Notes: generated by a model not told the origin, from the sequence alone. A stretch of DNA of 64,000 nucleotides from Thermoanaerobaculia bacterium (GCA_036375135.1 DASUSL010000091.1:10947-74946), one strand, 5' to 3'. Numbered from the stretch's first letter, positions 16,282 through 63,324 are shown. Numbers and translations: made by a program.

Positions 16282-16285
16282 AACA

Positions 16286-38855: not shown

Positions 38856-40034
38856 ATGACGATCCTGCGCCGCTTTCTCTCCAGCAACCTCGCCGTCTTC
38901 CTCTTCGTGGCCGCGGTGCACGGCGTCATGACGCGTGCGAATGCGATCATCGGCGTCGACACGCAGCTCTACATCACGTTGGCCGATCAGGTGCGCGCCG
39001 GCACGTGGAGCGGCGTCTTCGACTCGTCGCGCGTGTTGTGGACGAAGACCATCTACATCGTCCTCCTGGCCGCGGCGCGCGCGATCAGCAGCGTGCACTG
39101 GCCGCTGATCATGGTGGCGGTGAACGTCCTCTGCAGCGCGGCCACGGCGGTGCTGCTCGTGGCGCTGATGCGGCGCGCGACGTCGTCGCTGCCGGCCACG
39201 GCGCTGGCGCTCGCGTTCTACGTCACGGGCTTCGACATCTTCACGTGGGTGCGCTGGGTGCTCACCGACACGATCTACACGCTGGCCGCCCTCGGCGTGT
39301 TCGTGCTGGTGGCGATCCCGGTCCTCGATCCGTCCGCGCCGCGGCGCCATGGCCTCCTCGCCGCCGCGCTGCTGTTCGCGCTCTTCAGCCGGCCGCCGGG
39401 GATGGTGCTGGTCGCGCTGACGGCCGTCGCCGCGCTCTGGTTCTGGCCGCCGCCGCGTCTGCGCCGCGGCCTGCTCGCGACGATGCTGCTGGTGATCGTG
39501 GCCGCGGTCGGGTTCCGCACGTACATCGTCCACGATCCGGGACGCTGGCCGGTGCATCCGCTGCGGCAGAAGATCCACGAGTTCGCGGCGCGCGAGAAAT
39601 CGGGGGAAGTGATCTTCGGCCGGCAGGAGGCGTTCCGCCCGCCGGCGCGGACGGCCGGCGATCACCTGGTCATTCAGGCGGACCGCTTCGCGCGCTTCTT
39701 CCAGTTCACGGCGGCGGGCTACTCGCGCGCGCACAACCTGTACAACGTGCTCTATTTCGTCGCGCTCTATCTGCTCGCGCTGATCGGAGTGGTGCACGGT
39801 TACCGCTCCGCGGATCGCCGCAGGCGGGACCTGGTGCGGCTGACGCTCCTCTGGTTCCTCGCCTTCGCCGTCTATCACGCCATCACGGTGCTCGACTACG
39901 ACTGGCGTTTCCGCACGCCGGTGATGCCGCAGCTGATCGTGCTGGCGGCGCTCGGCGCGGAGGCGCTGCTTCAGCGGGTGACGTGGCGGCGGACGAGCTC
40001 CGCGGCGCGCGTCGCTTTCTCCTCGTCGAAGTAG
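38856..40034 (+). CDS. polytopic membrane protein, possibly a GT-C-fold (ArnT/PMT-like) glycosyltransferase
   Basis: About 10 predicted TM segments; an Arg/aromatic-rich loop follows TM1. The call rests on topology and on context with ArnC-like and ArnB/WecE-like genes; no motif could be confirmed. Confidence 0.4.
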   Translation: MTILRRFLSSNLAVFLFVAAVHGVMTRANAIIGVDTQLYITLADQVRAGTWSGVFDSSRVLWTKTIYIVLLAAARAISSVHWPLIMVAVNVLCSAATAVLLVALMRRATSSLPATALALAFYVTGFDIFTWVRWVLTDTIYTLAALGVFVLVAIPVLDPSAPRRHGLLAAALLFALFSRPPGMVLVALTAVAALWFWPPPRLRRGLLATMLLVIVAAVGFRTYIVHDPGRWPVHPLRQKIHEFAAREKSGEVIFGRQEAFRPPARTAGDHLVIQADRFARFFQFTAAGYSRAHNLYNVLYFVALYLLALIGVVHGYRSADRRRRDLVRLTLLWFLAFAVYHAITVLDYDWRFRTPVMPQLIVLAALGAEALLQRVTWRRTSSAARVAFSSSK

Positions 40035-40783
40035 CGGTCGTTGAAGAGATTCACGACCTCCGCGTGCAGCCGCTCCGCGTGCGGGAAGCCGCGCTCGAGC
40101 GGCGCGTAGTGGCGGCTGGCGAAGAGTCCCGCGTCGAAGATCGCGCGCACCAGCTCCTCGGCGCGTGCGACGCGGATGTTGAAGCGCCACGTGCAGAGCT
40201 CCGGCGGCATTTGGACTTCCAGCGGGATGATTTCCCGATAGATGGCGTTGAGCCGCGCCTTCACGTCGTCAGCCCGGTCTCGCTCTTTGAGAACGCGCTC
40301 GAGATACTCCGGTGGAGGAGAGGCAATCCTGCCTGTCCCGGACAGGCTGTATTGCCTGTCCTCCATCATCTGCGCGAAGCCGCCCTCGCCGAGGTCGACA
40401 TACTTTGCGTAGCCCGTACTGAAGAGCGTCACATCCGCATGTGGCGAAAGATCCGTCCCTTCGACGTCGGGCGGACAGAGGCACCGATCGTCGACGATCC
40501 TGAAGTCCTCGCGCGCGAGCTCCGCAAAGAACGCGTCCGCGTCGTAGACCGCCCCGTACGTCCGCACGAAGACCACGCCCGCGCAATGCGGCGCACGAGA
40601 AAGAATCTGCTCGCGCGACGGCTCCAGCGTGACGGGGTCGACGTCGACCAGCTCGTACGCGCGCCCCGCGGCGCGCAGCGTGGCCGGCACGATGTCGCAG
40701 ACGTTGGCGGGGAGGAGCCACACCCCGTCGTGTGAGGCCACGACGTCGTGCAGGATGGCCGCGGCGCGGTGAGCGTAGATCAT
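39971..40783 (-). CDS. short DegT/DnrJ/EryC1/StrS-family (PLP-dependent aminotransferase-like) protein
   Basis: LPANVCDIVPATLRAAGRAYELVDVDPVTLEP...FRIVDDRCL...FSTGYAKYVDLGEGG resembles the DegT core including the Lys-containing motif. Contains an in-frame F1 double palindrome (EDRQYSLSGTGRIASP). Confidence 0.45.
   Translation of the reverse strand: MIYAHRAAAILHDVVASHDGVWLLPANVCDIVPATLRAAGRAYELVDVDPVTLEPSREQILSRAPHCAGVVFVRTYGAVYDADAFFAELAREDFRIVDDRCLCPPDVEGTDLSPHADVTLFSTGYAKYVDLGEGGFAQMMEDRQYSLSGTGRIASPPPEYLERVLKERDRADDVKARLNAIYREIIPLEVQMPPELCTWRFNIRVARAEELVRAIFDAGLFASRHYAPLERGFPHAERLHAEVVNLFNDRYFDEEKATRAAELVRRHVTR
40312..40366. repeat. tandem double copy of the F1 palindromic element inside the DegT-like gene
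   Basis: GTGGAGGAGAGGCAATCCTGCCTGTCC CGGACAGGCTGTATTGCCTGTCCTCCAT. Confidence 0.85.
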
Positions 40784-42015
40784 CGCAGCCGCTCGAGCCG
40801 CTGCTGTTCGCGGGCGATGTTGTGCGCATCGACCGCGTCCGCGGTCATGTCGTCGCGCGTCGTGTAAGGCTCTTCGAAAGAGCGGAGGATGTCCGGCGCT
40901 TCCTCTTCGCGGATGCCGGCGTCGTAGCCAAGGAGGCGCATCTCGGGGAAGCAGGTCGCTTCGACGAAGCGGATCACGTCCCGCGGCAGCACGTCGCGAT
41001 ACGCTCCCACCGACTCACGCGAGACGCCCCGCCGCTCGCCGTGCGACGAGTTGCCACCCCACGACATGCTCTCCCCAATGTGGGGCGTGGCTTCAGCCCG
41101 CCCCTCGGGCGGGGTGGGGGGCACCGGGATAGGCGGGACCGGGGTGGGCGGCACCGGGATAGGCGGGACCGGGGTGGGCGGCACCGGGCCGGGCGGCACC
41201 GGGGTGGGCGGCACCGGGATGGCCGGCACCGGGCCGGACGGCACCGGGCCGGCCGGCACCGGGGTGGGCGGGCTGAAGCCGCGCCCCACATTGGCCAGCA
41301 GTCGTTGCAGTTCGGCCGCGGGGGCTTGCGTGAGGTCTTCGTAGCGCAGCCAGTGAAAACCCGCGCGTCCTTCGAGCTCGAGCGCGAAGGCGACGCTCTT
41401 GCGCCACTGCCGGATGTTGAAGAGCGTCGGCTTCAGCGCGCCGCCGAACTCCGGGCCGCGGCCGTGATTGAGCGACGCCAGCACGTCGCGCGGATCGCGC
41501 ACGATCAGCGCGCACGACACACCCGCGTCGAGAAACGCGGGGAGAAACTCCTCGCACGTCGTCTCCTTCGCCCCGGCCACCGGCGCGTCGCGGCGCGCCA
41601 GCCCGCGCCAGAGCGCGGTCATCATCGGCACGAACGGAGCGTCGGTGAGTGCGGCGTCCGTCTCCTCGCGCGTGAAGCGCGTGTACTGGCCGGAGTAGGT
41701 CTCCATCCGCGCGAAGAGCGCACGCGCGCGCTCGCGGTCCAGCGTGTAGTCGCGCAGGAACGCCGTGAAGTCGGCGGGCGTGTAGCGCGTTTCGCCGAAG
41801 AGGTGGCCGAGCGGGTAGCGCGCGTCTTCTTCGCCGAGCGTGCGCAGAAAGTCGCGCTTCGCCTCGACGAACAGCAGCGGCGCGGGCTGGGAAAGGATCG
41901 TCAGTGAAGGCTGTGCGTCGAGCAGCTTTTCGAGAAGCGTCGTTCCCGAGCGCTGCATGCCGGTGATGAACATCCGGCGCGAATGATAGGGCATGGTAGG
42001 ATGCGCGGCCCTCAT
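40780..42015 (-). CDS. sulfotransferase-domain protein carrying an in-frame Pro-rich pentapeptide repeat insertion
   Basis: [17 protein letters not shown] is the PAPS 5'-phosphosulfate-binding loop; an RDPRD region follows. A 73-aa insertion (GRGFSPP[TPVPx]n...[13 protein letters not shown]) is encoded by the composite repeat 41075-41294. The start may be an internal ATG (MPYHS, rc 41992-41994). Confidence 0.75.
41075..41294. mobile_element. composite MITE-like element: about 30-bp terminal inverted repeats containing the F2 GGCTTCAGCCC core, flanking ten 15-bp tandem repeats (GGCACCGGGGTGGGC)
   Basis: Left CCAATGTGGGGCGTGGCTTCAGCCCGCCCC; right GGGCGGGCTGAAGCCGCGCCCCACATTGG (one mismatch to the rc of the left arm). 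The internal 150 bp is 10 x 15 bp, read as PxVPx pentapeptides on the minus strand. Confidence 0.8.
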
Positions 42016-43714
42016 GACCGTCCTCGTCAGTCCGTATGGCGGCCGTCTCGTCGATCTCGTCGAGAGTCTCGAGCGTCAGGCACTGCTCGAAGCGGCAAAA
42101 CAACTCCCGTCGATCCAGATCTCGGAGCGCGCGCTGTGCGATCTCGAGCTCCTCGCCACCGGTGCGTTTTCGCCGCTGGACACGTTCCTCGGACGCGCCG
42201 ACTACGAGCGCGTGGTCGAGGAGATGCGTCTCGCCGACGGCACGCTCTTCCCGATCCCGGTGACGCTCCCGGTCGAGCCGTCGGAGGCGCTGCAGCTCGA
42301 CCGCGACATCGTGTTGCGCAGCTCGCGGAACGAGATCCTCGCCGTCATGACCGTCACGGAGATTTACGAGTGGGACCGCGCCGAGGCGGCGGCGCGCGTG
42401 TTCGGCACGACCGATCCCGCGCATCCCGTCGTGGCGGAGCTGGAACAGTGGGGGAGGGTCAACATCTCCGGTCCGCTGCGCGTGCTGAAGCTCCCCACGC
42501 CGCCCGACTTCGCGGCGCTGCGCCACACCCCCGCGGGCGTGCGCAGGATGCTCGAGGAGCGCGGCCGCGCGAACGTGGTCGCCTTCCAGACGCGCAACCC
42601 GCTGCATCGCGCGCATGAAGAGCTGACGCGCCGCGCGTACCAGTCGATCGACGGCGTGCTGCTGCTGCATCCGGTCGTCGGCATGACCAAGCCGGGCGAC
42701 GTCGATCACTTCACGCGCGTGCGCACGTACAAGGCGCTGGCGGAGAACTACTATCCGGCCGACCGCATCGTCCTGTCGCTGCTGCCGCTGGCCATGCGCA
42801 TGGCCGGCCCGCGCGAGGCGCTGTGGCACGCCATCATCCGGCGCAACCACGGCGCCAGTCACTTCATCGTCGGCCGCGATCACGCCAGTCCCGGCAGCGA
42901 CAGCCACGGGAAGCCGTTCTACGGTCCATACGACGCGCAGGAGCTGCTGGCGCGACATGCCGAGGAGATCGGCGTCACGCCGGTCGCGTTCAACGAGATG
43001 GTGTATCTCGTCGATGAGGATCGCTACGAAGAATCATCGCGCGTTCCGGGGAATGCACAGGTGCGCAAGCTCTCCGGCACGCAGGTGCGCGACGAGTATC
43101 TGAACCGCGGCACGCTGCTGCCGGCGTGGTTCACGCGGCCGGAGGTCGCGGCGATCCTGCAGGAGACGTATCGCCCGCGATCGCAGCAGGGCTTCTGCGT
43201 CTGGTTCACGGGCCTCAGCGGCGCAGGGAAGTCGACCATCGCCGAGGTGCTGGTGCGGCTGCTGATGGAGCGCGGGCGGCAGTCGACGCTGCTCGACGGC
43301 GACGTCGTCCGCACGCATCTCTCCAAAGGCCTCGGCTTCTCGAAGGAAGACCGCGACACGAACATCACGCGCATCGGCTTCGTGGCCGCCGAGGTCGTGC
43401 GTCACGGCGGCGCGGCCATCTGCGCGGCGGTCAGTCCGTATCGCGCCACGCGCGACGCGGTGCGGGCCATGGTCGGACACGACCGCTTCCTGGAGATCTT
43501 CGTCGACACGCCGCTCGAGGTCTGCGAGGCGCGCGACGTCAAAGGTCTCTACGCGCAGGCGCGCGCCGGCACGGTCGCGCATTTCACCGGCATCAGCGAT
43601 CCGTACGAGGCACCGCTGTCGGCGGAGCTGATCGCGGACACGGTGCAGCGGTCGCCGGAAGAGAACGCGCGGATGATCGTCGAGCTACTGGCCGGCCGCG
43701 GTCTCGTGCACTGA
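42014..43714 (+). CDS. bifunctional sulfate adenylyltransferase / adenylylsulfate kinase (PAPS synthesis)
   Basis: N-terminal ATP sulfurylase ([30 protein letters not shown]) and C-terminal APS kinase ([12 protein letters not shown]-loop). Diverges from the sulfotransferase with overlapping start regions. The ORF also allows ATG 41993. Confidence 0.9.
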
Positions 43715-44406
43715 GTCGCGCCATCCCCAGATGAAGCGCGGCGCGTCCGGTCCGGTGTGGAACAGGAGATCGATGATGCTGACGCGGTGCTCGAACGGCG
43801 GGTGGAACTGCGGGTACTCGGGATAGCCGGCGTAGTCCTTCCACGTCAGCTCGATGCCCTGGGCCTCGAAGCCCTCCGGCTCGATGTAGCTTTTCGCGGC
43901 AGGGCCGGAGAGATACGCGCTCGCACCGGTCTCGCGCAGGATGGCCAGCAGCCGATCCTGCCGCCGCAGCTCCGGAGCCATGCCGCGCGAGTCGCCGAAG
44001 ATGGTGCGGATGCCGAGAAGCTCCGTGGCGATCGCGCGGATGAGATGCTGATTGAGATCCGACAGCAGACGCCACGGGCGCGCCAGGTAGATCTCCTCGA
44101 AGAACGGGCGATAGAGATCGAAAAACGGTGCGCGGCCGTAGGCCTCGCGGATGCGCCGCCAGTGCGTCGCGGCCCACGTGTCGGATGGAAGCTCGACGTC
44201 GCAGATGCGGCGGCGGAGGTCGGTGCCGACGGGGATGGTCAGCCACTCGGCGCCGTTGGCGGTCTTGATGCGGTTGCGGTTGCGCCAGTCCTGCCGCGTG
44301 TACTGCACGTCGTCGAGGAAGATCAGCTCGTCGACGTCATGGATAATGTCGAAATAGCCTTTCCACGGGAGATAGCCGGATTGAAGGATTGCGACGCGCT
44401 TGGCCA
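43685..44406 (-). CDS. WbqC-like family protein
   Basis: MAKRVAILQSGYLPWKGYFDIIHDVDELIFLDDVQYTRQDWRNRNRIKT matches the WbqC N-terminal signature. The longer ORF upstream is GC-artefact extension. Confidence 0.7.
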
Positions 44407-45344
44407 TGCAGGAGCAGAGTAGGAGTATAGCCACGCCGGACGTGTCGATCGTCGTCCCCGTGTACAACAGCCCCGACCTCGTCGCGCTCGTCGACCGCAT
44501 CGACGCCGCGTTCCGCGGCCGCGCCGAGTCGTACGAGGTGATCCTCGTCGACGACGCCTCGCCCGACGCGCGCATCTGGCCGCGACTGGAGACGCTGGCG
44601 CGCGAGCGCGCGCACGTGGCGGCCATTCAGTTGTCGCGCAACTTCGGACAGCAGGCGGCCACGCTGTGCGGACTGCGCGAGGCGCGCGGCGCCGTGGCCA
44701 TCACCATGGACGACGACCTGCAGCACGATCCGGCCGACATCCCGCTGCTGCTCGCCGCGCGCGGGCACGACATCGTCATCGGCGTGCTGGCCGGCAGGAA
44801 GCATCACTTCCTGCGCCGCGCCGCGAGCCGCGTCAAGAACGTCTTCGATCGCATCGTGATCGGCACGCCGAAGGGACTGCAGCTCAGCTCCTTCCGCCTG
44901 CTCAGCCGCACGGTCATCGACGGCGTGCTCTCCATGCGCACCGCGCGTCCGTTCCTCCCCGCGCTCCTGTTTCACGTGAGCAAGGACGCGACGGCGGTGC
45001 CGGTCACGCACAGCCGCCGCGCGGCGGGGCGCAGCGGCTACACGTTCTCGCGGCTCCTCGCGCTCTTCAGCAATCTGGTCATCAGTAACTCGTCGATCCT
45101 GCTGCGCGCGGGCGCGTACGCGGGCTTCACCTTCGCGTTCGTGAGCTTCGTGCTGGCGGCGATCGTCATCTACCGCAAGCTCGTGCACGGGCTGGCGGTG
45201 CAGGGATGGGCGTCGCTCTTCGCCGCGGTGATGCTGGTCGGAGGACTGATGCTCATCCAGCTCGGGATCATCGGCGAGTACCTGATCCGCATCATCGAGA
45301 CCGGCGAGGCGAAGCCCGCCTACATCGTGCGCCGCCGCTGCTGA
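44400..45344 (+). CDS. polyprenol-phosphate glycosyltransferase (GT2, ArnC/DPM1-like) with two C-terminal TM helices
   Basis: VSIVVPVYNSPDLVALVDRI, VILVDDASPD, QLSRNFGQQAATLCGL, then a DDDLQHDP catalytic region and C-terminal TM helices; ArnC/GtrB architecture. Confidence 0.8.
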   Translation: MAMQEQSRSIATPDVSIVVPVYNSPDLVALVDRIDAAFRGRAESYEVILVDDASPDARIWPRLETLARERAHVAAIQLSRNFGQQAATLCGLREARGAVAITMDDDLQHDPADIPLLLAARGHDIVIGVLAGRKHHFLRRAASRVKNVFDRIVIGTPKGLQLSSFRLLSRTVIDGVLSMRTARPFLPALLFHVSKDATAVPVTHSRRAAGRSGYTFSRLLALFSNLVISNSSILLRAGAYAGFTFAFVSFVLAAIVIYRKLVHGLAVQGWASLFAAVMLVGGLMLIQLGIIGEYLIRIIETGEAKPAYIVRRRC

Positions 45345-45480
45345 GGGGAACCGACGAAGAGGCCTCCGGCGGGCCGACGGGGCCGGCAGCGCCGGTTGCT
45401 CCGCCGAGAGCGTGCGTTCAGCGAAGCAACAAGCGCTGCCGGTCGCACCGGCCCGCCGGAGGCCTCCCGGTCGGTCTCCT

Positions 45481-46635
45481 TCAGAAGCTGCAGACCGCGT
45501 CGATGATGCGCGTCTGGTCCGCCTCGCTGAGCGTCGGATACAGGGGGAGGCGCACGACGCGATCGCTGACCGACTCCGCGACCGGGCAGTCGCCGGGGCG
45601 GCCGCCGAACCGCTCGCCCATCGCCGAGAGGTGCAGCGGCATGTAGTGGAAGATCGCCTGCACCGAGCGGCGGCGCAGATGGGCGATGAAGGCCTGCCGT
45701 TCGTCGAGCGACGGCAGGAGCAGGTGGAAGAGGTGCCAGGCCTGCGTGCAGTGCTCCGGCACGTGCGGCAATTGCACGCCGCGTTGCTGCGCCCAGTCGC
45801 GGATGCCGTCGAAGTAGCGCTCCCAGACGCGCTGGCGGGCGCGCTGGATCTTCTCGCGCGCCTCGAGCTGCGCGACGAGAAACGCGGCCAGCATGTCGGA
45901 GGCGACGTAGCTCGAGCCGAGGTCGAGCCACGTGTACTTGTCGACCTCACCGCGAAAGAAGCGGCTGCGGTCCGTCCCTTTCTCGCGGAGGATCTCGGCG
46001 CGCGCGATGAGCGACGGATCGTTGATCACCAGCGCGCCGCCCTCGCCGCAGGAGACGTTCTTCGTCTCGTGAAAGCTGAGCGTGCTCAGCGCGCCGAACG
46101 TGCCGAGGGGGCGGCCGCGGAACTGGCCGAAGAGACCGTGCGCGTTGTCTTCGATGACGTTGATGCGGTTGCGGCGCGCGATGTCGAGGATCGTGTCGAG
46201 CTCGCAGCCGACGCCGGCGTAATGCACGGGGACGATGGCGCGCGTGCGCGGCGTGATGAGCTGCGGCAGCAGGCGCTCGTCGAGGTTGAGCGTATCGGGA
46301 CGGATGTCGATGAACACCGGCCGCGCGCCGCGCAGTGCGAAGGCGCTGGCCGTGGAGACGAAGGTGAACGACGGGATGATCACCTCGTCGCCCGGCTGGA
46401 GATCGAGCAGCAGCGCGGACATCTCCAGCGCGTGCGTGCACGACGTCGTGAGGAGCACGCGCGCGCCGCCCAGGAGCTCGGACAGCATGCTCTCGCTGCG
46501 GCGCGTGTAGACGCCGTCGCCGGAGATGTGCCCCCGCTCGATGGCGTCGCGGACGTACGCCAGTTCCTGCCCGGCCAGCGACGGCCGGTTGAACGGAATG
46601 GCCGGCTCGATCACTGCGCGTTCGGCTTCTTTCAT
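45481..46635 (-). CDS. DegT/DnrJ/EryC1/StrS-family sugar aminotransferase (WecE/ArnB-like)
   Basis: IPFNRPSLAGQELAYVRDAIERGHISGDG...SCTHALEMSALLL...VIIPSFTFVSTA...FSFHETKNVSCGEGG...DKYTWLDLGSSY, colinear with dTDP-4-amino-4,6-dideoxygalactose transaminase. Start ATG rc 46633-46635. Confidence 0.85.
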   Translation of the reverse strand: MKEAERAVIEPAIPFNRPSLAGQELAYVRDAIERGHISGDGVYTRRSESMLSELLGGARVLLTTSCTHALEMSALLLDLQPGDEVIIPSFTFVSTASAFALRGARPVFIDIRPDTLNLDERLLPQLITPRTRAIVPVHYAGVGCELDTILDIARRNRINVIEDNAHGLFGQFRGRPLGTFGALSTLSFHETKNVSCGEGGALVINDPSLIARAEILREKGTDRSRFFRGEVDKYTWLDLGSSYVASDMLAAFLVAQLEAREKIQRARQRVWERYFDGIRDWAQQRGVQLPHVPEHCTQAWHLFHLLLPSLDERQAFIAHLRRRSVQAIFHYMPLHLSAMGERFGGRPGDCPVAESVSDRVVRLPLYPTLSEADQTRIIDAVCSF

Positions 46636-46667
46636 CACTCCTTCGACGATGCCAGAATACCGGAGCG

Positions 46668-47297
46668 ATGAGCCACCGAACCAGCGGTCTGTACAGATTT
46701 CTGGAGGTGCCCGCGCTCTACGAAGCCCTGCAGCGTCTCCTCGGCGCGGACGCCGCGCGGAAACGATTCGTCGCACGCTTTCTCCGTCCCGCGAGCGGCA
46801 TGCGCATCCTCGACATCGGCTGCGGTCCCGGCCCGATGCTCGACTATCTCCCCGCCGATGTCGCCTACACCGGCTACGACCTGAACGCGGCGTACATCGA
46901 GGCGGCGCGGCAGCGCTACGGCGCGCGGGCGCGCTTTCTCCACGCACGCGTCGGTGAGGAGCCGGCCGAGATCGAGGCGTCGAGCTTCGACCTCGTCATC
47001 GCCAAGGGGATCCTGCATCACCTGAACGACGACGAGGCGCATCAGCTCCTGCGCGCGGCATTCCGCTATCTCCGTCCGGGAGGCTTCTTCGTGTCGCTCG
47101 ACGGCGTGCGTCACGAGGGTCAGAAGATGCTGTCGCGATGGATCATCTCGCTCGATCGCGGGCGCGCCGTGCGCGATCCGGAGGGTTACGAGCGTCTCGC
47201 GCGCGCACACACGCCGGCGGTGGAAGGAGCACTGATCACCGACTGGCTGGCGGTGCCGTACAGCTACTACATCATGCGCGCGCAACGGACGCCGTGA
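46668..47297 (+). CDS. class I SAM-dependent methyltransferase
   Basis: ILDIGCGPGPM (motif I) and DLVIAKGILHHL. Confidence 0.75.
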   Translation: MSHRTSGLYRFLEVPALYEALQRLLGADAARKRFVARFLRPASGMRILDIGCGPGPMLDYLPADVAYTGYDLNAAYIEAARQRYGARARFLHARVGEEPAEIEASSFDLVIAKGILHHLNDDEAHQLLRAAFRYLRPGGFFVSLDGVRHEGQKMLSRWIISLDRGRAVRDPEGYERLARAHTPAVEGALITDWLAVPYSYYIMRAQRTP

Positions 47298-48114
47298 GCA
47301 GCAGGCTGGCGCCGAAGGGAATCGTCGCGCCGCGCTCGATGCGGCGGATCTCGAAGGCCAGCGACGTTTGCGCGAGCCCGCGCATTGCACCTCCGCCGGC
47401 GCGATGCTGCGCGCGCGAGCTGGCGCGTGCGACCTCGCGCGGCGAGAGACGCGAGCGCAGCGTGCGGCCGAGGAAGATCGCCGGCGGCAGCAGCGAGAAA
47501 AAGTACGTCGCGTAGTCGACGCGATAGCCGGCGGCGGTCACGGCGTCGCGCAGCGTGCGGCTCGTGTAGCGGCGCTTGTGTCCCGACGTGATGTCGTTGC
47601 GCGACCAGAGCCACGGATAGGCGGGGACCGTGAGATAGAGACGCCCGCCCGGCTGCAGATAACGCGCGAGGTCGCGCAGATAGCCGCGGTCATCCTCGAT
47701 GTGCTCGACAACGTCGAACAGGCCGATGCCTCCCGCCGTGGCTTCGCGGAACGCGGCGGAGGGAAGCGCGCCGCAGACCACCTCGCTCACGCCGCGCGAG
47801 ACGGCGTTCGCCGCGCCGGTGCGGCCCGGCTCGATGGCGATCGTGCGGATGCCGGCGCGCTGGAGCGAGGCGGTCACGTAGCCGTTGCCGGCCCCCACGT
47901 CGAAGATCGGCCCCGCGGCGGGCGGCCATCGCCGCACTGCCGCGGCGATCGCCGCGCTGCGATGCGCGAACCAGAACGACTCCTCCTCGAAGCTCAGGCA
48001 GTAGTCGTGAGCGTCGGCGGGGTAGGAAGCCGCGGCGTCGTTCGGCGCGACCCAGTAGCCCGCGGCGTCGCGTGCGAGTCCGGGTGCGATCTGCTGCAGC
48101 TCCATCCGGCGCAC
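47272..48114 (-). CDS. class I SAM-dependent methyltransferase
   Basis: IFDVGAGNGYVTASL (motif I), LFDVVEHIEDD and RLYLTVP. Confidence 0.75.
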   Translation of the reverse strand: MRRMELQQIAPGLARDAAGYWVAPNDAAASYPADAHDYCLSFEEESFWFAHRSAAIAAAVRRWPPAAGPIFDVGAGNGYVTASLQRAGIRTIAIEPGRTGAANAVSRGVSEVVCGALPSAAFREATAGGIGLFDVVEHIEDDRGYLRDLARYLQPGGRLYLTVPAYPWLWSRNDITSGHKRRYTSRTLRDAVTAAGYRVDYATYFFSLLPPAIFLGRTLRSRLSPREVARASSRAQHRAGGGAMRGLAQTSLAFEIRRIERGATIPFGASLLLTASVARA

Positions 48115-48176
48115 TTTAGAGCAAAAACAAAAAGCCCCGGCTTGCGCCGGGGCTTTCGTGATTCGCGGAACGGAAA

Positions 48177-49976
48177 TTACTTCTGCACGACGGGGAACGC
48201 ACCTTCGCGCTCGACTTCGTAGCCGAGGTAGCCCTTGCGGACGCCCTGGACGAGGTAGTCGAACTCGAGGTCCGTGCTGCCGTTGGCGACCTTGATGACC
48301 AGCTTCTCCGCCGACTTGCTGGCGACGTAGAGCTGTCCCGGCGCGCCGACCGGCGTGAGCTGCACGGTCATCCGCTCGTTCTCGGTGAGGCGGGAGAAGT
48401 AGCCCGGGAGCTCGATCACCACTTCGCCGTTGACCGTCTTCGCGGTGCCGCGGTAGTAGGTGCCGGCCTCGGGACCTTCGAGCGCGGTGTAGTAGAGCGC
48501 CTGGTTCTCGTTGGCAGGATCGACGACGGCGAAGTTCTTCACGCCGGAAACGGTGAAGTTGCCCGGAACCGTGATCGCGCCCGTCGAGGCGATCGTCATG
48601 CGGGCGGTGCTGTTCGTGCCGAGGATCAGCGGCGTCGAGCCCTGGGTACCGACGATCAGACCGTTGCCGCCGGCGTTGAGCATTTCGCTCCAGGCGCCGA
48701 GCGTCTGGCCGAAGCGCGAGATCGTGCGCCCCGTGCCGTGAGCGATCAGGCTGGTCACCGCCGTGTCGCCTTTGGCCTGCAGGACGCCCGCGGCCGAAAG
48801 ACCGGTCGAGTTCGTGTTCTGGACGAGCGTGATCGTGTTGGCGTCGTCCGACGCCTCGATGTTGAGCTTCGTGTCGGGGGAAGCGGTACCGACGCCGACG
48901 TCACCGTCGGCGCTGATGTCGATCGACGAGGTCGGGGCGCCCGGGCGGATGCGGAACGGCAGGCGCGAGCCGCTGGTCACGTCGCGGACGAAGAAGTTCG
49001 CCTCGTTGCCCGCGATGTCCCAGGTCTGGGCGGTGAAGCCGCCGGCGTTGGTCTGCTCGAGGCGGATGGCCGGGGTGTTGCTCGTCGAGACGTGGAGGTC
49101 GAGCACCGGGGTGGCGGTGCGGAAGCCGACGCGGCCCGTGCTGTCGACGAAGATCGAGTTCGTCGATGCGCCGGCGGTGATCGTCATCGGAACCTTGGCG
49201 CCGGTGATGTCCTCGATCGAGAAGCGGTTCGCGGTGCCGCCCGGCGGGTCGTTGGCGGTGAGCTGCCAGTCGTTGGACGGGAAGCTGCCCGTGGACGTGT
49301 CCTCGAACTTGATGCGCGTGCTGTTCTCTTTGAGGCGGATCGTGTCGAAGCCGAAGCTCTCGCCGTTGACGCAGTCGAAGCCGACGCAGAGGCTGCTCTG
49401 CACGATGAGGTCATCGGGGATGACCTGGTCGTTGACCGCAACCTTGCCGCCGCGCGGCGTCGTCGTGCCGCCGATGGTGGTCTCCTCTTCCTTCTGCGAA
49501 GAGGTCTCGGTCTGCATGCGCGCTTCGGTGGCCGACGGGTTGACGAACGTGCCGCCGCTGACGGTGATCGTGCCGGACGACACGTTGTCGGTCAGGCCGG
49601 CCTCGCGCATGATCTTGCGGGCGGCCGAGTCGTCGTTCGCCGCGCGGGCGTTCTCGAGCTTCTTGGCCACGGCGCCGGAGACGGTCGGGGCGACGCGGAT
49701 CTCCCACGTGTAGGCACCGTCTTCGATGTCGGAACCAAGATCGCTCAGACGGAGCGTGATCGGACGGTTGCCGTTGTAGGTCTTGGTGATGGTGTCGCCG
49801 TTCGGGAACGACAGCACGAGCTCCACGCTCTCATGCTGGCCGCTCGGATTCGGCCACTCGATCGTCGAGCTGCCGACCGACGGCTTACCGACGGCATTGC
49901 CGGCAAACGCGCTGAACGGAATGGCGAGGCAAACCACGATTGCGGCAATGCGAAGCATGGGGAACCGATAAATCAT
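48177..49976 (-). CDS. secreted tail-fibre-like repeat protein with a probable C-terminal intramolecular-chaperone (S74-like) domain
   Basis: Signal peptide MLRIAAIVVCLAIPFSAFA, Gly/Thr/Ser-rich beta-strand repeats, the GDVGVGTASPDTKLNI motif typical of tail-fibre-domain proteins, and a conserved-looking C-terminus. Confidence 0.5.
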   Translation of the reverse strand: MIYRFPMLRIAAIVVCLAIPFSAFAGNAVGKPSVGSSTIEWPNPSGQHESVELVLSFPNGDTITKTYNGNRPITLRLSDLGSDIEDGAYTWEIRVAPTVSGAVAKKLENARAANDDSAARKIMREAGLTDNVSSGTITVSGGTFVNPSATEARMQTETSSQKEEETTIGGTTTPRGGKVAVNDQVIPDDLIVQSSLCVGFDCVNGESFGFDTIRLKENSTRIKFEDTSTGSFPSNDWQLTANDPPGGTANRFSIEDITGAKVPMTITAGASTNSIFVDSTGRVGFRTATPVLDLHVSTSNTPAIRLEQTNAGGFTAQTWDIAGNEANFFVRDVTSGSRLPFRIRPGAPTSSIDISADGDVGVGTASPDTKLNIEASDDANTITLVQNTNSTGLSAAGVLQAKGDTAVTSLIAHGTGRTISRFGQTLGAWSEMLNAGGNGLIVGTQGSTPLILGTNSTARMTIASTGAITVPGNFTVSGVKNFAVVDPANENQALYYTALEGPEAGTYYRGTAKTVNGEVVIELPGYFSRLTENERMTVQLTPVGAPGQLYVASKSAEKLVIKVANGSTDLEFDYLVQGVRKGYLGYEVEREGAFPVVQK

Positions 49977-50172: not shown

Positions 50173-51723
50173 TCACTCCCACTCGATCGTGCCGGGTGGT
50201 TTCGAGGAAATGTCGTAAACGACGCGATTGATGCCCCGCACCTCGTTCACGATGCGGCGCGCCATGCGGTCGAGCAGGTCGTGCGGCATGCGGTACCAGT
50301 CGGCGGTCATGAAGTCAGTCGTGGTCACGGCGCGGATCGCGCACACATTCTCGTACGTGCGCTCGTCGCCCATCACGCCGACGCTCTTCACCGGCAGCAG
50401 CACCGCAAACGCCTGCGCGATCTCGCGATAGAGGCCGGCGTTGCGGATCTCGTCGATGACGATCTCGTCGGCGTTCTGCAGCACTTCCACGCGCGCGGCG
50501 TTCACCTCGCCGAGGATGCGCACGGCCAGGCCGGGGCCGGGGAAGGGATGGCGCCAGACGAATTCCTCTTCCAGCCCGAGCTCGATGCCGAGGCGGCGCA
50601 CTTCGTCCTTGAACAGCTCGCGCACCGGCTCGATGAGCTTCAGCCCCATCTTCTCCGGCAGCCCGCCGACGTTGTGATGCGTCTTGATGACCGCGGACGG
50701 ACCTTTGATGGACACGGACTCGATCACGTCGGGGTAGAGCGTCCCCTGGACGAGGAACTCCACGTCCTGGATCCGCTTCGCTTCCTCTTCGAAGATGACG
50801 ATGAACTCGTTGCCGATGCGCTTGCGCTTGACCTCGGGATCCTCGATGCCGGCCAGTTTCGCGTAGAAGCGCTCGCGCGCGTCGACCTGCACGAAGTGCA
50901 GCCCGAGGCGGTCGCTGAGCCGGGAGCCGACCTGCACGGCCTCGTGCTTCCGCAGCACGCCGTTGTCGACGAAGATGGCCGTGAGCTGATCGCCGATGGC
51001 CTCGGCCACGAGCAGCGCGGCGACGGTGGAGTCGACGCCGCCGCTCACGGCGACGATGGTTTTGCGGTCGCCGACCTGCTGGCGGATCTCTTCGACCTTG
51101 CGGCGGCGGAAGTCGCCGAGGTCCCACGTCGGCTGGCAGCCGGCGATGTCGAAGAGGAAGTTCTTCAGGATCTGTCCGCCCGCCTCGGTGTGCGTGACCT
51201 CGGGATGGAACTGGATGCCGTAGCAGCGGCGCTCCGCGTTCTCGAACGCGGCCACGGGCGCGCTGGCGGTGGAGGCGATGGTGCGGAAGCCGGGAGGGCC
51301 GGCCAGGATGCGGTCGCCGTGGCTGGCCCACACCTGCTGTTGTTTCGGGGTGCCGGCGAAGAGCGGCGAGTCGGCGGTGACTTCGATCTCGGCGCGGCCG
51401 TACTCGCGCTCGGTCGCGGCTTCGACTCTCCCCTCGAGGAAGTAGGCCGTGAGCTGCATGCCGTAGCAGATGCCGAGGATCGGCACGCCGAGCTCGAAGA
51501 CTTCCCGCGAGCAGTACGGCGCGGCCTCGGCGTAAACCGACTGCGGACCGCCGGAGAGGACGATGGCCTTCGGGGCCAGCTCGCGGATCTTCTCGATCGG
51601 CCAGTCGCACGGATGGACGACGGAGTAGACGGCGTTCTCGCGAATCCGCCGCGCGATCAGTTGCGTGTATTGGGAACCGAAGTCGAGAACGAGGACAGTC
51701 TGCTCAGGCTGCACGGCGCGCAT
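50173..51723 (-). CDS. guaA: GMP synthase (glutamine-hydrolysing)
   Basis: N-terminal GATase ([18 protein letters not shown]), PP-loop [13 protein letters not shown]-terminal dimerisation domain ending PPGTIEWE. Confidence 0.97.
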
Positions 51724-52628: not shown

Positions 52629-53335
52629 ATCTGGTCGAGCGGCACGATCGCGGGGTGATCCGCCACGCGAGTACGGTTTACGGTTCCTCGGTCGACGGCG
52701 TTCCCCTGACGGTCTTTCTGCCCGATTCCGGCAGCGCCGAGCTGGTCCTCCTCGCCGCCATCCACGGCGACGAGCCGGAGACGACGGTCGCGCTCTCCGA
52801 AGCACTGCGCTGCCTGCCGGAAGGGGAGCTGCGCGCGGCGGTGATCCTGTGCGGCAATCCCGACGGGCTGCTGCGCGGCACGCGCGGCAACGCGCGCGGG
52901 ATCGACCTGAACCGCAACTTTCCGACGTCGAACTGGACTCCGGGCGAGGTGTTCTACAAGAGCCGCGCGAACGACGCGCGCGACATCGCGCTCAGCCCCG
53001 GCCCCGAGCCTGCCTCGGAACCGGAAACGCGCGCGTTGCTGGCGCTGCTCGAGAAGCTCGACCCTCGCGCGGTGGTCAGCATGCATTCCGCGCTGGCCTG
53101 CGTCGACGACTCCGGCAAGTCGCACCTCGGGAAGCAGCTCGCCGACCGTTGCACGCTCCCGCTCCTGACCGAGATCGGCTATCCGACGCCCGGCTCGATG
53201 GGGACGTGGGCCAGCGAGCGCGGGCTGAACCTGGTCACGCTGGAGCTCGAGGACGCGTCGCTGTACGCGCTGAAGGATCATCACGTGCCGATCCTGCTCG
53301 ATCTGATGACCGGCAGGTTCGAGCTCGAGGCGTAG
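52625..53335 (+). CDS. M14-family zinc carboxypeptidase/amidase (MpaA-like murein peptide amidase)
   Basis: GTGA overlap start; AAIHGDEPET (HxxE zinc ligands), NPDG and IDLNRNF motifs; about 237 aa like MpaA. Confidence 0.7.
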   Translation: MNLVERHDRGVIRHASTVYGSSVDGVPLTVFLPDSGSAELVLLAAIHGDEPETTVALSEALRCLPEGELRAAVILCGNPDGLLRGTRGNARGIDLNRNFPTSNWTPGEVFYKSRANDARDIALSPGPEPASEPETRALLALLEKLDPRAVVSMHSALACVDDSGKSHLGKQLADRCTLPLLTEIGYPTPGSMGTWASERGLNLVTLELEDASLYALKDHHVPILLDLMTGRFELEA

Positions 53336-53337
53336 CG

Positions 53338-54246
53338 ATGCACATCCTCGTCACCGACTCCGGCGTCGGCGGCCTTTCCGTGGTCGCGTACGCCGAGCGC
53401 TTCGTGCGCACGCACGGCTTCACCGAGCCGGTGCGGCTCACGTTCGCGAACGCCGCTCCGGCGAACGACTACGGCTACAACTCCATGCGCACGCGCGAGG
53501 AGAAGCTGGAGACCTTCGACCGCTTCCTGCGCAACGTGACGGAGCGCTTCGCGCCCGACTCGATTTACGTCGCCTGCAACACGCTCTCGGTGCTGCTGCC
53601 CGACACGCCGTACTTTGCTGATGCGCCGGTGCCGGTGAAAGGGATCGTGGAGACGGGCGTCGAGCTCCTGCTGCGCGAGCTGGCGCCGCGGAGTGTGGCG
53701 ATGATCTTCGGCACCCAGACCACCATCGACGCGGGAACGTATCCGCGGCTCCTCATCGAGCGCGGCATCGAGCCGTCGCGCATCGTCAGCCAGGCCTGTC
53801 CCGGGCTGGCGGACACGATCTCCGAAGACCGCGAGGGGACGCGAACGCGCGAGGAGATCCGCGGCTGGGTGAGCGCCGCGATCGCGAAGATGGAGCACGC
53901 CGGCGCGCCCGTCGTCGCCGCGCTGGCCTGCACGCACTACGGCTATCGCAAGGACGACTTCGCCGCGGCGTTCGAGGAAGCGGGGATCGACGCGCGCGTG
54001 GTGAACCCGAACGAGCGCGCCGCCGACGACCTGATGGAGGACAGGCAATCCTGCCTGTCCGGTTTTTCGCGAGATCGGGACAGGCAGGGTTGCCTGTCCT
54101 CCACCACTGACGTCGAGGTGCGCTTCGTCACGCGCTACGCGATCCCGGATGCGACGGTCGAGGCGCTCACGTTCTTCCTGAACGAGATCTCACCCCGGAC
54201 CGTCGCCGCGATGCGGCACTTCGAGCATCTGCCGGATCTGTTCTGA
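53338..54246 (+). CDS. murI: glutamate racemase-like (Asp/Glu/hydantoin racemase family)
   Basis: VTDSGVGGLSV and LACTHYGY catalytic-Cys motifs. Carries an in-frame 24-aa insertion from two inverted F1 palindromes (EDRQSCLSGFSRDRDRQGCLSSTT). Confidence 0.7.
   Translation: MHILVTDSGVGGLSVVAYAERFVRTHGFTEPVRLTFANAAPANDYGYNSMRTREEKLETFDRFLRNVTERFAPDSIYVACNTLSVLLPDTPYFADAPVPVKGIVETGVELLLRELAPRSVAMIFGTQTTIDAGTYPRLLIERGIEPSRIVSQACPGLADTISEDREGTRTREEIRGWVSAAIAKMEHAGAPVVAALACTHYGYRKDDFAAAFEEAGIDARVVNPNERAADDLMEDRQSCLSGFSRDRDRQGCLSSTTDVEVRFVTRYAIPDATVEALTFFLNEISPRTVAAMRHFEHLPDLF
54036..54104. repeat. two inverted F1 palindromic elements separated by 17 nt inside murI
   Basis: GGAGGACAGGCAATCCTGCCTGTCC ggtttttcgcgagatcg GGACAGGCAGGGTTGCCTGTCCTCCAC. 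Confidence 0.85.
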
Positions 54247-54333: not shown

Positions 54334-55431
54334 TTACGCGTTCACGAACCGCCGCATGTCCACGTTCAGGATCAGCCCGATGGCGATGAAGAACATCATC
54401 GTCGACGAGCCGCCGTACGAGATCAGCGGCAGCGGAATGCCCGTCGTCGGCAGGATCCCGATCTGCATCGACACGTTGATGAGCACGTGGAAGATGATGA
54501 ACGAGATCAGGCAGATGATCAGGAACGTGCCTCCCCGGTCACGTGCCTGCTTCGCGAAGTTCAGGGCTTGAATCACGAGGAACAGATAGAGCCCCAGCAC
54601 GATGATCACGCCGATGAAGCCCCACTCCTCGCCGAGGACCGCGAAGATGAAGTCGGTGTGCCGCGCGGGGAGGAACTCCAGCTTCGCCTGCGTACCGTGG
54701 CGGAAGCCCTTGCCGTTGATGCCTCCGGAGCCGATGGCGATCTTCGCCTGCGTGACCTGGTAGCCCGAGCCGAGGGGATCGCGCTCCGGGTTGAGGAAGA
54801 TCGCCACGCGCTCCTTCTGGTACGGCTTGAGGAACGCGAACCATCCCACGGGGAGCGCGATCGCCACCAGCAGGATCATGGCGATCCAGACGCGGGCGCG
54901 GATCCCTCCGAAGAACATCGCCACGGCGTAGAGCGGGAAGAACGACGCCGCGGTGCCGAAGTCGGGCTGGATGATGATCATCCCCACCGGCAGCGTGATG
55001 ATGCCCATGACCATCAGGAACGAGCGCAGGTCGAGATAGGCGCGGTCGTTCGAGTCGAAAAAGCGCGCCACCATCAGCGCGGTGAAGAGCTTCATGAACT
55101 CCGACGGCTGGAACTGGAAGCCGCCGATGTGGATCCACGAGCGCACGTTCGCCGTGAGCCGTCCGAACACCATCAGATACAACAGCAGCAGAATGCCGAT
55201 GCCGTAGAGGATCGGCGCGATGTCGAACAGGACGTGATAGTCGACGACCATGAACGCGATCATCAGCGCCACGCCGATGGCCACCCACAGCAGCTGCTTC
55301 TTCGCGGTCGAGAGCGAGGGATCGCTGTAGTAGGTCGCGCTGTAGACGAGCAGCACGCCGATGAGCGCCAGCACCACGGCGGTGCCGAGGAAGTTCCAGT
55401 CGACGGACGGGCCACGGTCGCGAAAAATCAT
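54334..55431 (-). CDS. rodA: SEDS-family peptidoglycan glycosyltransferase RodA
   Basis: Ten-TM SEDS protein (QPSEFMK, LPARHTDFIFA, PLPLISYGGSS), adjacent to mrdA. Confidence 0.9.
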   Translation of the reverse strand: MIFRDRGPSVDWNFLGTAVVLALIGVLLVYSATYYSDPSLSTAKKQLLWVAIGVALMIAFMVVDYHVLFDIAPILYGIGILLLLYLMVFGRLTANVRSWIHIGGFQFQPSEFMKLFTALMVARFFDSNDRAYLDLRSFLMVMGIITLPVGMIIIQPDFGTAASFFPLYAVAMFFGGIRARVWIAMILLVAIALPVGWFAFLKPYQKERVAIFLNPERDPLGSGYQVTQAKIAIGSGGINGKGFRHGTQAKLEFLPARHTDFIFAVLGEEWGFIGVIIVLGLYLFLVIQALNFAKQARDRGGTFLIICLISFIIFHVLINVSMQIGILPTTGIPLPLISYGGSSTMMFFIAIGLILNVDMRRFVNA

Positions 55432-57371: not shown

Positions 57372-57382
57372 ATAGGGGGTCC

Positions 57383-57444
57383 GGGTGCTGGGTGCTGAGT
57401 GCTGAGTGCTGAGAACTCAGCACCCAGCACTCAGCACTCAGCAC
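57383..57444. repeat. hairpin of tandem heptamers (GTGCTGA)n / (TCAGCAC)n between mreD and mrdA
   Basis: GGGTGCTGGGTGCTGAGTGCTGAGTGCTGAG aa CTCAGCACCCAGCACTCAGCACTCAGCAC, 12 nt upstream of the mrdA ATG. Confidence 0.85.
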
Positions 57445-57456
57445 TTCTCTTTCATG

Positions 57457-57960
57457 TCAGTACGCCTTGCTGCGCGTCGCCTCGATCGGCTCTTCGCGCA
57501 GGAAGAGCGTCAGCAACTGATACACCAGCATTCCGAACAGAAGTGTGAAGATCGTCTTCACGAGCAGCGCCTGCTCGAACATCTCGATCTTCTGCTTCAT
57601 GAGGATGTTCACCAGGACGTAGATCACCAGCTCGTTCACGATCACCGCGCCGCCGAGGCAGGCGCCGAAGGCGAGAGAGCCGCGCAGCGCCAGGCGCGCG
57701 TTGATCGAGGCCACCACGTAGCCGCACACCGTCAGGGAGAAGGCGTGCAGGCCGAAGGGGGCATTGGAGAACGCATCCTGGACGAAGCCGGCCAGGACGC
57801 CGGCCACGATCGCGCCGAGGATGTTGCCGCCCATCGAGTAGTAGACCACCAGGATGACGTACGGATTGAAGAACGCCAGGGCGTTCGGATAGAAGCTGTC
57901 GAGCAGCGAGTGCAGGGTCAGGGCGAGGAGCAGCCCGATGGCGAAGCGCAACCACCTCAA
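57457..57960 (-). CDS. mreD: rod shape-determining protein MreD
   Basis: 167 aa, five hydrophobic helices, directly downstream of mreC with a 4-nt overlap. Confidence 0.65.
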   Translation of the reverse strand: MRWLRFAIGLLLALTLHSLLDSFYPNALAFFNPYVILVVYYSMGGNILGAIVAGVLAGFVQDAFSNAPFGLHAFSLTVCGYVVASINARLALRGSLAFGACLGGAVIVNELVIYVLVNILMKQKIEMFEQALLVKTIFTLLFGMLVYQLLTLFLREEPIEATRSKAY

Positions 57961-58817: not shown

Positions 58818-58902
58818 AGATTTCGCGAAGTCAGCTCAGCAGATTTCCTGCCACCGCGCCGGCCGGAGCTAACTTTCCTTTCCCCCTCGCGTAGTTCGAC
58901 AC

Positions 58903-60117: not shown

Positions 60118-60170
60118 AGGCAAGAGGAAAGAGGAAAGAGGGAAGAGGAAAGCGCCGCGCGCTGAGGATC
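60099..60170. repeat. hairpin GATCCTCAGCGCG / CGCGCTGAGGATC enclosing a purine-only (GAGGAAA)n tract, over the amidohydrolase stop
   Basis: Purine run GAGGCAAGAGGAAAGAGGAAAGAGGGAAGAGGAAAGCG at 60117-60154. Its complement-type pyrimidine run recurs at 60745-60785. Confidence 0.75.
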
Positions 60171-60218
60171 TACTCGATCGAGAGTCGCTGCCAGCCTGAG
60201 GTTGCGTACACTTCCGCT

Positions 60219-60347
60219 ATGGCCGATGAACCGCCACCTGAGCCATCGAACAGGCTGCCGCACGCCGAGCATGCGGTAGTTCACGAGTCCAAAGTTCGCG
60301 AGTATCTGCTATCTCCCAGTCATCCTATCGGTCGCTTCGAAGTATGA
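60219..60347 (+). pseudogene. truncated DUF6883-family gene fragment (N-terminal about 40 aa only)
   Basis: MADEPPPEPSNRLPHAEHAVVHESKVREYLLSPSHPIGRFEV* matches the DUF6883 N-terminal signature (..KL.DYLLS..HP.GR.KA.FF) but stops where the family continues for about 70 more aa. Downstream frames have no convincing continuation. Confidence 0.5.
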
Positions 60348-60701: not shown

Positions 60702-60710
60702 GCCCCCGCC

Positions 60711-60785: not shown

Positions 60786-63324
<2,539 letters not shown>

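Follow-up and report, generated by a model that had tools for sequence, protein, structure and literature searches.

A conserved gene cassette predicted to decorate the cell surface with a lipid-carried amino-sugar in an uncultured acidobacterium

Introduction

Do the ten genes that lie between ftsZ and guaA in an uncultured, soil-type bacterium of the Acidobacteriota belong to a single pathway, and what would such a pathway make? The genes (A–J) were analyzed in a 64,000-nucleotide stretch of DNA from a Thermoanaerobaculia bacterium (GCA_036375135.1, DASUSL010000091.1:10947-74946), hereafter the window, in which positions are counted from the first letter. They encode a candidate membrane glycosyltransferase with a GT-C-like fold (A), a short DegT-like protein (B), a sulfotransferase (C), a fused ATP sulfurylase/adenosine 5′-phosphosulfate (APS) kinase (D), a WbqC-family protein (E), a family 2 glycosyltransferase (GT2; F), a WecE-type aminotransferase (G), two S-adenosylmethionine (SAM) methyltransferases (H and I) and a secreted fibre (J). 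A preliminary description had read the segment 38856–48114 as an island for amino-sugar modification and sulfation of a glycan, with its own supply of 3′-phosphoadenosine 5′-phosphosulfate (PAPS).

Since six-frame lists of open reading frames (ORFs) are rich in artefacts at the G+C content of the window (61–70%), coding frames were chosen by third-position GC (GC3) and then scanned with Pfam and NCBIfam, and all the genes listed in that description were found to be present. We propose, with a probability of roughly 0.6, that the island represents a conserved, horizontally mobile cassette, known here from its genes alone, that decorates a cell-surface macromolecule with one tailored, lipid-carried amino-sugar.

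Results

Conservation of the gene set across phyla

Because synteny alone could explain why relatives of A share the slot between ftsZ and guaA, the comparison was anchored on B. One genome per GTDB species was scanned and the ORFs of each locus were searched with profiles, giving 51 B-anchored loci from about ten phyla. B is accompanied by E in 42 of these loci, by G in 41, by F in 38 and by C in 26, while H (13/51), I (4/51, close relatives only) and D (3/51, one of them a weak match) are rarer; the loci without E are mostly short contigs. Lack of co-conservation had been named beforehand as the result that would speak against a common pathway; what we find is that F, B, E and G recur together at the level of 38–42 of 51 loci, and that C and B are fused in one of them (L054, see below). 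The loci come from Acidobacteriota (Thermoanaerobaculia, Holophagales), from Alpha-, Beta- and Gammaproteobacteria and further taxa (Chromatium okenii, Accumulibacter, Rhodoferax, Pseudomonadales, Desulfobulbus, Maricaulis, Rhodobacter, Alteromonas halophila and Arcobacter), and from Chloroflexota (Anaerolineales, Chloroflexia), Planctomycetota, Verrucomicrobiota, Bacteroidota and a Firmicute contig (Anaerotruncus). There is thus a widespread core of a GT2, a short DegT-like protein, a WbqC protein and a WecE-type aminotransferase, and a sulfated version of this core, in which C immediately precedes B.

The genomic settings of the gene set differ. It occupies the ftsZ–guaA slot in an Acidobacteriota metagenome-assembled genome (MAG; L001), where A is 46% identical, and in L004 and L005 (85%). 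A variant in the same slot (L002:10001-19162, and L003) contains an A-type GT-C-like protein, a GT2, a DegT protein, two sulfotransferases and a fibre with a Peptidase_S74 (S74) tip; it lacks WbqC and B, and gains UPF0104/LPG_synthase_TM and sulfatase-family proteins. Elsewhere, the module stands beside rpsB-tsf-pyrH-frr in an 8.4-Mb Holophagales genome and in other contexts in two further MAGs. Each of these three loci holds a sulfotransferase–B pair, WbqC, GT2, DegT, one or more methyltransferases and a large polytopic protein (PMT_2 or unannotated), and two of the three further hold a UPF0104 protein together with a fibre gene. An LPG_synthase_TM protein is likewise encoded by distant cassettes, along with a large polytopic protein that in L040 and L017 belongs to PMT_2; UPF0104 proteins are predicted flippases of lipid-linked sugars (PMC12713373). 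The recurrence of the same gene set in unrelated contexts and in other phyla argues that the cluster is more than a chance assembly.

Sulfotransferase, DegT-like partner and PAPS supply

C (40780–41994, minus strand) matches Sulfotransfer_3 (PF13469; 50.6 bits, cutoff 27, E = 4e-13) and PF00685 (5e-8). Its PAPS-binding motifs, RSGTT (5′-phosphosulfate-binding loop) and RDPRD (3′-phosphate-binding site), are kept in 29 orthologs, and neither a transmembrane (TM) segment nor a signal peptide is predicted in C, so that sulfation must be cytoplasmic. Searches of PDB sequences gave nothing usable for C, and the same was true of A and E. Within the gene, a 15-nucleotide tandem repeat of 10.8 copies (41110–41271, minus strand; Tandem Repeats Finder, 82–87% match) encodes an array of PVPP(T/I/G) pentapeptides, about 55–60 residues long, in a loop between two conserved parts of the protein. 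Over 80% of 28 orthologs, among them the relative with 85% identity, lack the insert, which therefore looks like a recent in-frame expansion.

B (39971–40783, minus strand; 270 aa) was previously counted as one of two DegT-family aminotransferases. This assignment holds for G, a bona fide WecE-type member, whereas B is a remote, N-terminally truncated homolog without any Pfam match at E ≤ 0.01, the DegT family PF01041 included. Its relationship to fold-type I enzymes dependent on pyridoxal 5′-phosphate (PLP) was detected by a PDB match to TlmJ (2e-5) and by profile alignment with G (hhalign, 87%, E = 4e-6), in which K127 and D98–D99 of B fall on the PLP lysine and aspartate. Both the Schiff-base lysine K127 and the aspartate are invariant in 37 homologs. 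The protein lacks the first ~60–90 residues of DegT-family enzymes as well as part of the C-terminal domain. More than 375 homologs were found, in a family of ~270–330 aa. Among the species genomes, a Thermoanaerobaculia MAG is nearest, with 70% identity for B, which most likely places the window in that class.

We propose that C and B act as a pair. In a Rhodobacter sp. MAG (L054:8819-10984) the two are fused in one ORF of 722 aa, with the sulfotransferase at residues 17–363 and the short DegT-like domain at residues 396–712, and C, as judged by an ORF criterion, immediately precedes B in 20 of the 26 loci that contain it. Where D is absent, as in L001, E, C and B form one run with 4-nucleotide overlaps; in the window, D stands on the other strand and seems to be an insertion between C and E.

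D (42014–43714, plus strand; 566 aa) is a bifunctional sulfate adenylyltransferase/APS kinase, that is, a PAPS synthase (NF004040, 827.9 bits against a cutoff of 669), in which PUA_2, ATP-sulfurylase and APS_kinase domains were all found. The gene is placed near C in three different layouts: that of the window and L004; co-directionally upstream of C in L011; and after A in L024. These layouts argue for selection for PAPS synthesis beside C. The starts of C and D had been described as overlapping at 41993–42015, which applies to the longest ORFs of C (to 42015) and D (from 41993) and not to the probable genes. The L004 ortholog (85% identical; C of 333 aa, D of 566 aa, 19-nucleotide gap), the NCBIfam alignment of D and two CATG motifs agree on starts at 41994 for C and 42014 for D, which leave a gap of 19 bp.

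Enzymes for tailoring and carrier loading

F (44406–45344, plus strand) combines an N-terminal GT-A domain (PF00535) with two C-terminal TM helices (residues 233–251 and 261–279), as expected for a GT2 acting on polyprenyl phosphate. It aligns with positions 7–310 of 316 in the ArnC model NF007986 at 165.6 bits, short of the equivalog cutoff of 529, and its second-best NCBIfam match is PgfS (7.7e-36). Among PDB entries, ArnC (2e-43), GtrB (5ekp, 1e-33) and an archaeal dolichyl-phosphate mannose synthase (8e-19) align with F over its whole length.

The aminotransferase G (45481–46635, minus strand) passes both WecE equivalog models, NF008687 with 546.4 bits (cutoff 375) and TIGR02379 with 502 (cutoff 434.85), and is closer to E. 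coli WecE (4piw, 2.7e-129) than to ArnB (2e-53). Its PLP lysine lies in the motif HETK, as seen in the alignment with B. As judged by sequence, G is a dTDP-4-keto-6-deoxyhexose 4-aminotransferase of the WecE type. Two class I SAM methyltransferases follow, H (46668–47297, plus strand; Pfam Methyltransf_25/12/11) and I (47272–48114, minus strand; Methyltransf_23/11). H is nearest in the PDB to phosphoethanolamine N-methyltransferases (5wp5, 4e-14) and I, weakly, to a sugar 3-C-methyltransferase (4rv9, 9e-5), and neither match fixes the site of methylation.

E (43685–44407, minus strand) is a clear WbqC protein (PF08889; 248.7 bits against 21.3, 7.5e-74). It is 60–70% identical across phyla, which suggests a conserved small-molecule substrate. 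An AlphaFold (AF2) model (mean predicted local confidence, pLDDT, 91.8) has a HUP-type Rossmann fold, for which the best PDB match is BshC (E = 7.8e-3, probability 0.99, query TM-score 0.43), followed by nucleotidyltransferases and class I aminoacyl-tRNA synthetases. BshC is the cysteine-adding, amide-forming enzyme of bacillithiol synthesis, and the model weakly hints that E is a tailoring or ligase enzyme performing an ATP-dependent modification of a sugar amine. In the literature searched, no biochemical function was found for PF08889. WbqC is said to take its name from a cluster for N-acylated Qui4N in Shigella dysenteriae type 7.

Homologs of E with 64–65% identity also occur in other sugar clusters. 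In Paucibacter sp. XJ19-41 (L009) and an Opitutaceae MAG (L010) the layouts are, in one, Hexapep acetyltransferase–WbqC–GtrA–DegT–528-aa membrane protein and, in the other, DegT–radical SAM–WbqC–GT1 with UPF0104. These clusters point to WbqC as a widely reused tailoring enzyme.

A compact membrane protein with a GT-C-like fold

A (38856–40034, plus strand; 392 aa) has about eight hydrophobic or TM segments and no Pfam or NCBIfam match, and does not reach the thresholds of the curated GT-C families. An AF2 model built from the family alignment has a pLDDT of 86.5 and a predicted TM-score (pTM) of 0.86. Six of its seven best Foldseek matches in the PDB are GT-C enzymes (AftB, DPY19, Pmt4, STT3, ArnT and EmbB), with a probability of 1.00 but weak E-values (7e-3 to 0.16) and query TM-scores of about 0.5. 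The model is helical to the end, leaving no large soluble periplasmic or luminal domain of the ArnT, PMT or STT3 type.

A word-indexed search with A returned 19 relatives, all from Acidobacteriota metagenomes, and an exhaustive profile search returned 1673 cluster representatives of ~380–430 aa. Some of these relatives have weak matches to DUF2142, PMT, PMT_2 or ALG9-like families, and PMT_2 is matched by 5 of 76 divergent members (best 2.9e-6). A direct hhalign comparison of the A family with the PMT_2 protein of a related cassette was uninformative (probability 0.4%). Asp35, directly after TM1 in the first outside loop, is invariant in the 19 close and the 76 divergent members; from the positive-inside N-terminus we infer that it lies on the outside of the membrane, at what we take to be the position of the catalytic acidic residue in GT-C enzymes. 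That A might be unrelated to glycosyltransferases was the other result named beforehand as adverse; the relation to ArnT and PMT suggested in the preliminary description is instead supported by the fold matches, the weak family matches among relatives and the invariant Asp35. Based on the model, we accept A as a candidate glycosyltransferase that is GT-C-like at the level of fold, compact, and below curated sequence thresholds.

A fibre gene that travels with the cassette

J (48177–49976, minus strand) has a signal-peptide-like N-terminus and no Pfam match. The profile of its family matches the β-helix of the Bdellovibrio fibre Bd2133 (PDB 8ond, 4.9e-10), a "mosaic adhesive trimer" (MAT), fibres that come in S74 and non-S74 forms (PMC10769870). 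A central domain (approximately residues 183–365) is highly conserved, with many invariant positions including a cysteine pair, and orthologs vary in the N-terminal linker and in the C-terminal tip, which is either a Peptidase_S74 chaperone domain or another domain. J shares the signal peptide, the β-helical fibre repeats and the exchangeable tip with MATs, for which a conserved N-terminal domain of ~130 aa has also been described (PMC10769870), and we regard it as a MAT-like trimeric fibre.

J-like genes accompany 22 of the 26 C-positive loci and one of the 25 C-negative loci, the latter a fragment of 3.5 kb; the corresponding Fisher p of 2e-9 overstates the association because the loci are phylogenetically non-independent. 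Maricaulis is among the positive loci, with a match to the central domain at 1e-84. J-like genes are also found in cassettes that have A but neither B nor C (L064, L072). As J travels with the cassette, the functional unit probably extends to 49976, beyond the segment 38856–48114 that contains A–I.

Gene layout and surroundings

The island is not an operon. Its genes switch strand repeatedly (A> <B <C D> <E F> <G H> <I <J) to form a zig-zag of about seven transcription units. Convergent genes overlap at their 3′ ends, by 64 nucleotides for A/B, 30 for D/E and 26 for H/I. Between divergent starts, G and H are separated by 32 bp, and E and F share a CATG in which the start codons overlap by 2 nucleotides. 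An intrinsic-terminator-like hairpin with a 12-bp stem and a following T run (48130–48157, minus strand) comes right after J. A sigma-70 consensus scan of the island found no promoter, which, together with the little space between the genes, suggests leaderless mRNAs or promoters within neighbouring genes. The earlier statement that this is "not a described operon" is right in that no publication on it was found: literature searches on WbqC/PF08889, on sulfotransferases with undecaprenyl or ArnT, and on Acidobacteria sulfotransferases or PAPS brought up no description of such a cluster. The word operon itself does not apply.

Upstream, a complete dcw cell-division cluster (mraY ... ftsQ-ftsA-ftsZ) ends at 38546, with a strong terminator 3′ of ftsZ, and guaA (50173–51723) lies downstream. 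The remaining window is housekeeping in character, with tmk, acs, aroA, folP, carB and a rodA-PBP2-mreC-mreB block. This block, at 54334–61910 downstream of guaA, includes a second SEDS protein (rodA-like), so that division and elongation clusters are both in the window. A GT2 gene (858–1919) adjoins tmk. Four GC3-supported ORFs of 224–629 aa have no Pfam match at E ≤ 1e-4 (4926–6815, 6816–7490, 16282–17394 and 52849–54246).

Discussion

Proposed pathway

We suggest that the pathway would start from dTDP-4-keto-6-deoxyglucose supplied by RmlA and RmlB encoded elsewhere, and that G would aminate this compound at C4 to give a dTDP-4-amino-4,6-dideoxyhexose. Tailoring of the dTDP-sugar by E, B, H, I and C would then take place in the cytoplasm: E probably modifies the 4-amino group, B would serve as a second PLP enzyme, H and I would add methyl groups, and C would add sulfate from PAPS made on the spot by D. 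On the inner side of the membrane, F would load the finished sugar onto polyprenyl phosphate. The lipid-linked sugar would then be flipped, for which the UPF0104/LPG_synthase_TM proteins of related cassettes are candidates, and A would transfer the sugar to an acceptor on the outer face. A carrier step of this kind had been foreseen, and we keep it; the sugar itself, previously thought to be built on the polyprenol-phosphate carrier, is most likely assembled as a dTDP-sugar and loaded afterwards.

The acceptor, in our view, is more likely to be J, or some other protein or glycan of the surface, than lipid A, which is unlikely to be the general acceptor because the core cassette is also found in Chloroflexota and in a Firmicute. 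In its most specific form, the proposal would have a 4-amino-4,6-dideoxyhexose, N-modified and sulfated by means of PAPS, made on polyprenyl phosphate and attached by a compact GT-C family to the MAT-like fibre J or to its anchoring glycan. This detailed version is tentative, and as a whole we consider it less likely than not.

Several observations weigh against the cassette proposal. A has no significant Pfam match, and the E-values of its fold matches exceed 1e-3, at TM-scores of about 0.5; distant members of the A family (below ~37% identity) lie in contexts that are too short or free of cassette genes, and these neither support nor contradict a glycosyltransferase role. The role suggested for E depends on one weak fold match of a model. 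About half of the B loci are without C, which indicates that the chemistry of B needs no sulfate. The association with J is dominated by one phylum, and J has its own terminator. Finally, neither rmlA nor rmlB nor any flippase gene is among the window genes scanned with Pfam, and Pfam and NCBIfam scans of 38856–49976 found no gene of the GtrA, ArnE/F or UPF0104 type.

Alternative explanations

The same pathway might instead modify lipid A, the core of lipopolysaccharide (LPS) or O-antigen, tuning surface charge in the manner of Arn or Gtr systems, with the fibre as a mere neighbour. We regard this as possible though not probable. It would agree with the closest characterised relatives of F, ArnC and GtrB, with the presence of ArnT among the fold matches of A, with the many non-acidobacterial cassettes that lack J, and with the usual occurrence of WecE and WbqC families in loci for O-antigen and enterobacterial common antigen (ECA). 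It is harder to reconcile with the core cassette in Anaerolineales, Chloroflexia and a Firmicute contig, lineages that to our knowledge are not known to make LPS, with the failure of Pfam and NCBIfam scans to find ArnA, ArnD or ArnE/F, and with J accompanying the cassette in several genomic contexts and in Maricaulis. A different question is whether the sulfate is kept. C could make a leaving group that B eliminates or substitutes, to yield a deoxy or rearranged amino-sugar, as the C–B fusion, the position of C directly upstream of B and the retained PLP lysine and aspartate of B would allow; DegT-family 3-dehydratases (ColD/E1) and sulfate-leaving-group chemistry (CurM) are both known. However, about half of the loci have B with WbqC, DegT and GT2 in the absence of a sulfotransferase, no reductase partner is encoded, and the idea has no footing beyond inference. 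We consider such a role unlikely, and prefer a sulfate that would be retained on the sugar.

It is quite unlikely, moreover, that the product of F is a terminal glycolipid, a sugar-phospholipid or polyprenyl glycoside that is complete once flipped, with A not acting as its transferase. The lack of a significant family assignment for A leaves room for this, and the glycolipid synthases GpgSDF and HexSDF come with UPF0104 flippases (PMC12713373), but GpgS belongs to GT4 (PMC12713373), whereas F can be aligned over its full length with GT2s of the polyprenyl-phosphate type. In addition, A or a PMT_2-type polytopic protein is found with the cassette in most full-length loci, and the modelled fold of A is GT-C-like. 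Chance juxtaposition, in which D would serve housekeeping sulfate assimilation and the other genes would come from unrelated pathways, could appeal to the alternating strands and to D, which is strongly matched in no more than 2 of the 51 B loci and weakly in one other. We reject it as very improbable and largely refuted by the co-conservation across phyla and by the C–B gene fusion; the recruitment of D beside C three separate times, in different orientations, also contradicts it. A cassette for decorating a surface macromolecule with a lipid-carried amino-sugar is the explanation that we retain.

Significance

Bacterial sulfated glycoconjugates are rare and poorly understood, and the cassette would offer a well-delimited, portable set of genes for making one. 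Three families so far without a known function would gain testable roles: WbqC (PF08889), the short DegT-like family represented by B, and the ~400-aa GT-C-like family of A, for which there is no Pfam model although its cluster representatives number over 1600. Through its association with a phage-tail-like fibre, the cassette suggests a way in which abundant uncultured soil Acidobacteriota build or decorate surface adhesins. If attachment to J proved true, the result would be a bacterial system for sulfated protein glycosylation that is spread across phyla, with the C–B pair and WbqC as new nucleotide-sugar tailoring enzymes and a GT-C family that was previously unclassified.

Comparison with known systems

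The Arn pathway, which places aminoarabinose on lipid A, resembles the cassette in using a DegT-type 4-aminotransferase, an undecaprenyl-phosphate-loading GT2 with C-terminal TM helices and a periplasmic GT-C enzyme. In the cassette, however, the aminotransferase G is of the WecE type, acting on a dTDP-6-deoxyhexose, and not ArnB; F falls below the ArnC cutoff; and A, at 392 aa, does without the periplasmic domain of ArnT. The Arn pathway in turn has no counterpart of WbqC, the short DegT-like protein, the methyltransferases or the sulfation step. Identification of the island as an Arn operon was rejected on the absence of ArnA, ArnD and ArnE/F and on the WecE-type G. The Gtr system for O-antigen glucosylation (GtrA/GtrB/GtrC) is similar in being a mobile cassette with a polyprenyl-phosphate GT2, a flippase and a polytopic transferase, but it moves plain glucose, whereas our cassette includes a nucleotide-sugar tailoring set and sulfation. 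Moreover, GtrA is absent from the window, and cassette relatives use UPF0104.

The Pgf system of Streptococcus mutans glycosylates surface adhesins by means of a GT2 lipid-sugar synthase and GT-C membrane transferases (PMC5856776). Pgf (PgfS/PgfM1/PgfE/PgfM2) and actinobacterial protein O-glycosylation by Ppm/Pmt share the logic of GT2 plus GT-C with the cassette, in which F matches PgfS and distant relatives of A match PMT or PMT_2. Pgf differs in its sugar chemistry and is not known to include a sulfotransferase; J, for its part, is a putative glycosylation target. The Fuc4NAc branch of ECA synthesis (WecE/WecD) is comparable through G, which reaches the WecE equivalog cutoffs, and is unlike the cassette in that the latter has neither the WecD acetyltransferase nor WecF and that its product would be a lipid-phosphate monosaccharide rather than a repeat unit.

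In NodPQ–NodH and RaxPQ–RaxST, as in the cassette, the sulfotransferase has a dedicated ATP sulfurylase/APS kinase encoded in linkage with it. The acceptors of the Nod and Rax systems, a Nod factor and a peptide tyrosine, respectively, differ from that of the cassette, whose sulfotransferase in addition stands with a proposed lipid-carrier and GT-C route and with a fused or adjacent PLP protein. The Bdellovibrio MAT fibres resemble J in the β-helix matched to Bd2133, the signal peptide and the swapping of S74 and non-S74 tips (PMC10769870). J is shorter (~600 aa against ~1000 aa), has a conserved central domain and belongs to non-predatory Acidobacteriota, and MATs have not been reported in connection with a glycan cassette.

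The logic of the cassette is that of the ArnC/ArnT, GtrB/GtrC and Pgf/Pmt systems, and it is a member of none of them. What sets it apart is that a short DegT-like protein is paired with the sulfotransferase, that WbqC is one of the core enzymes, that a PAPS synthase has been recruited and that a fibre is linked to it, besides a compact GT-C-like family for which there is no curated model. The cassette is real and coherent, and apparently has not been described before.

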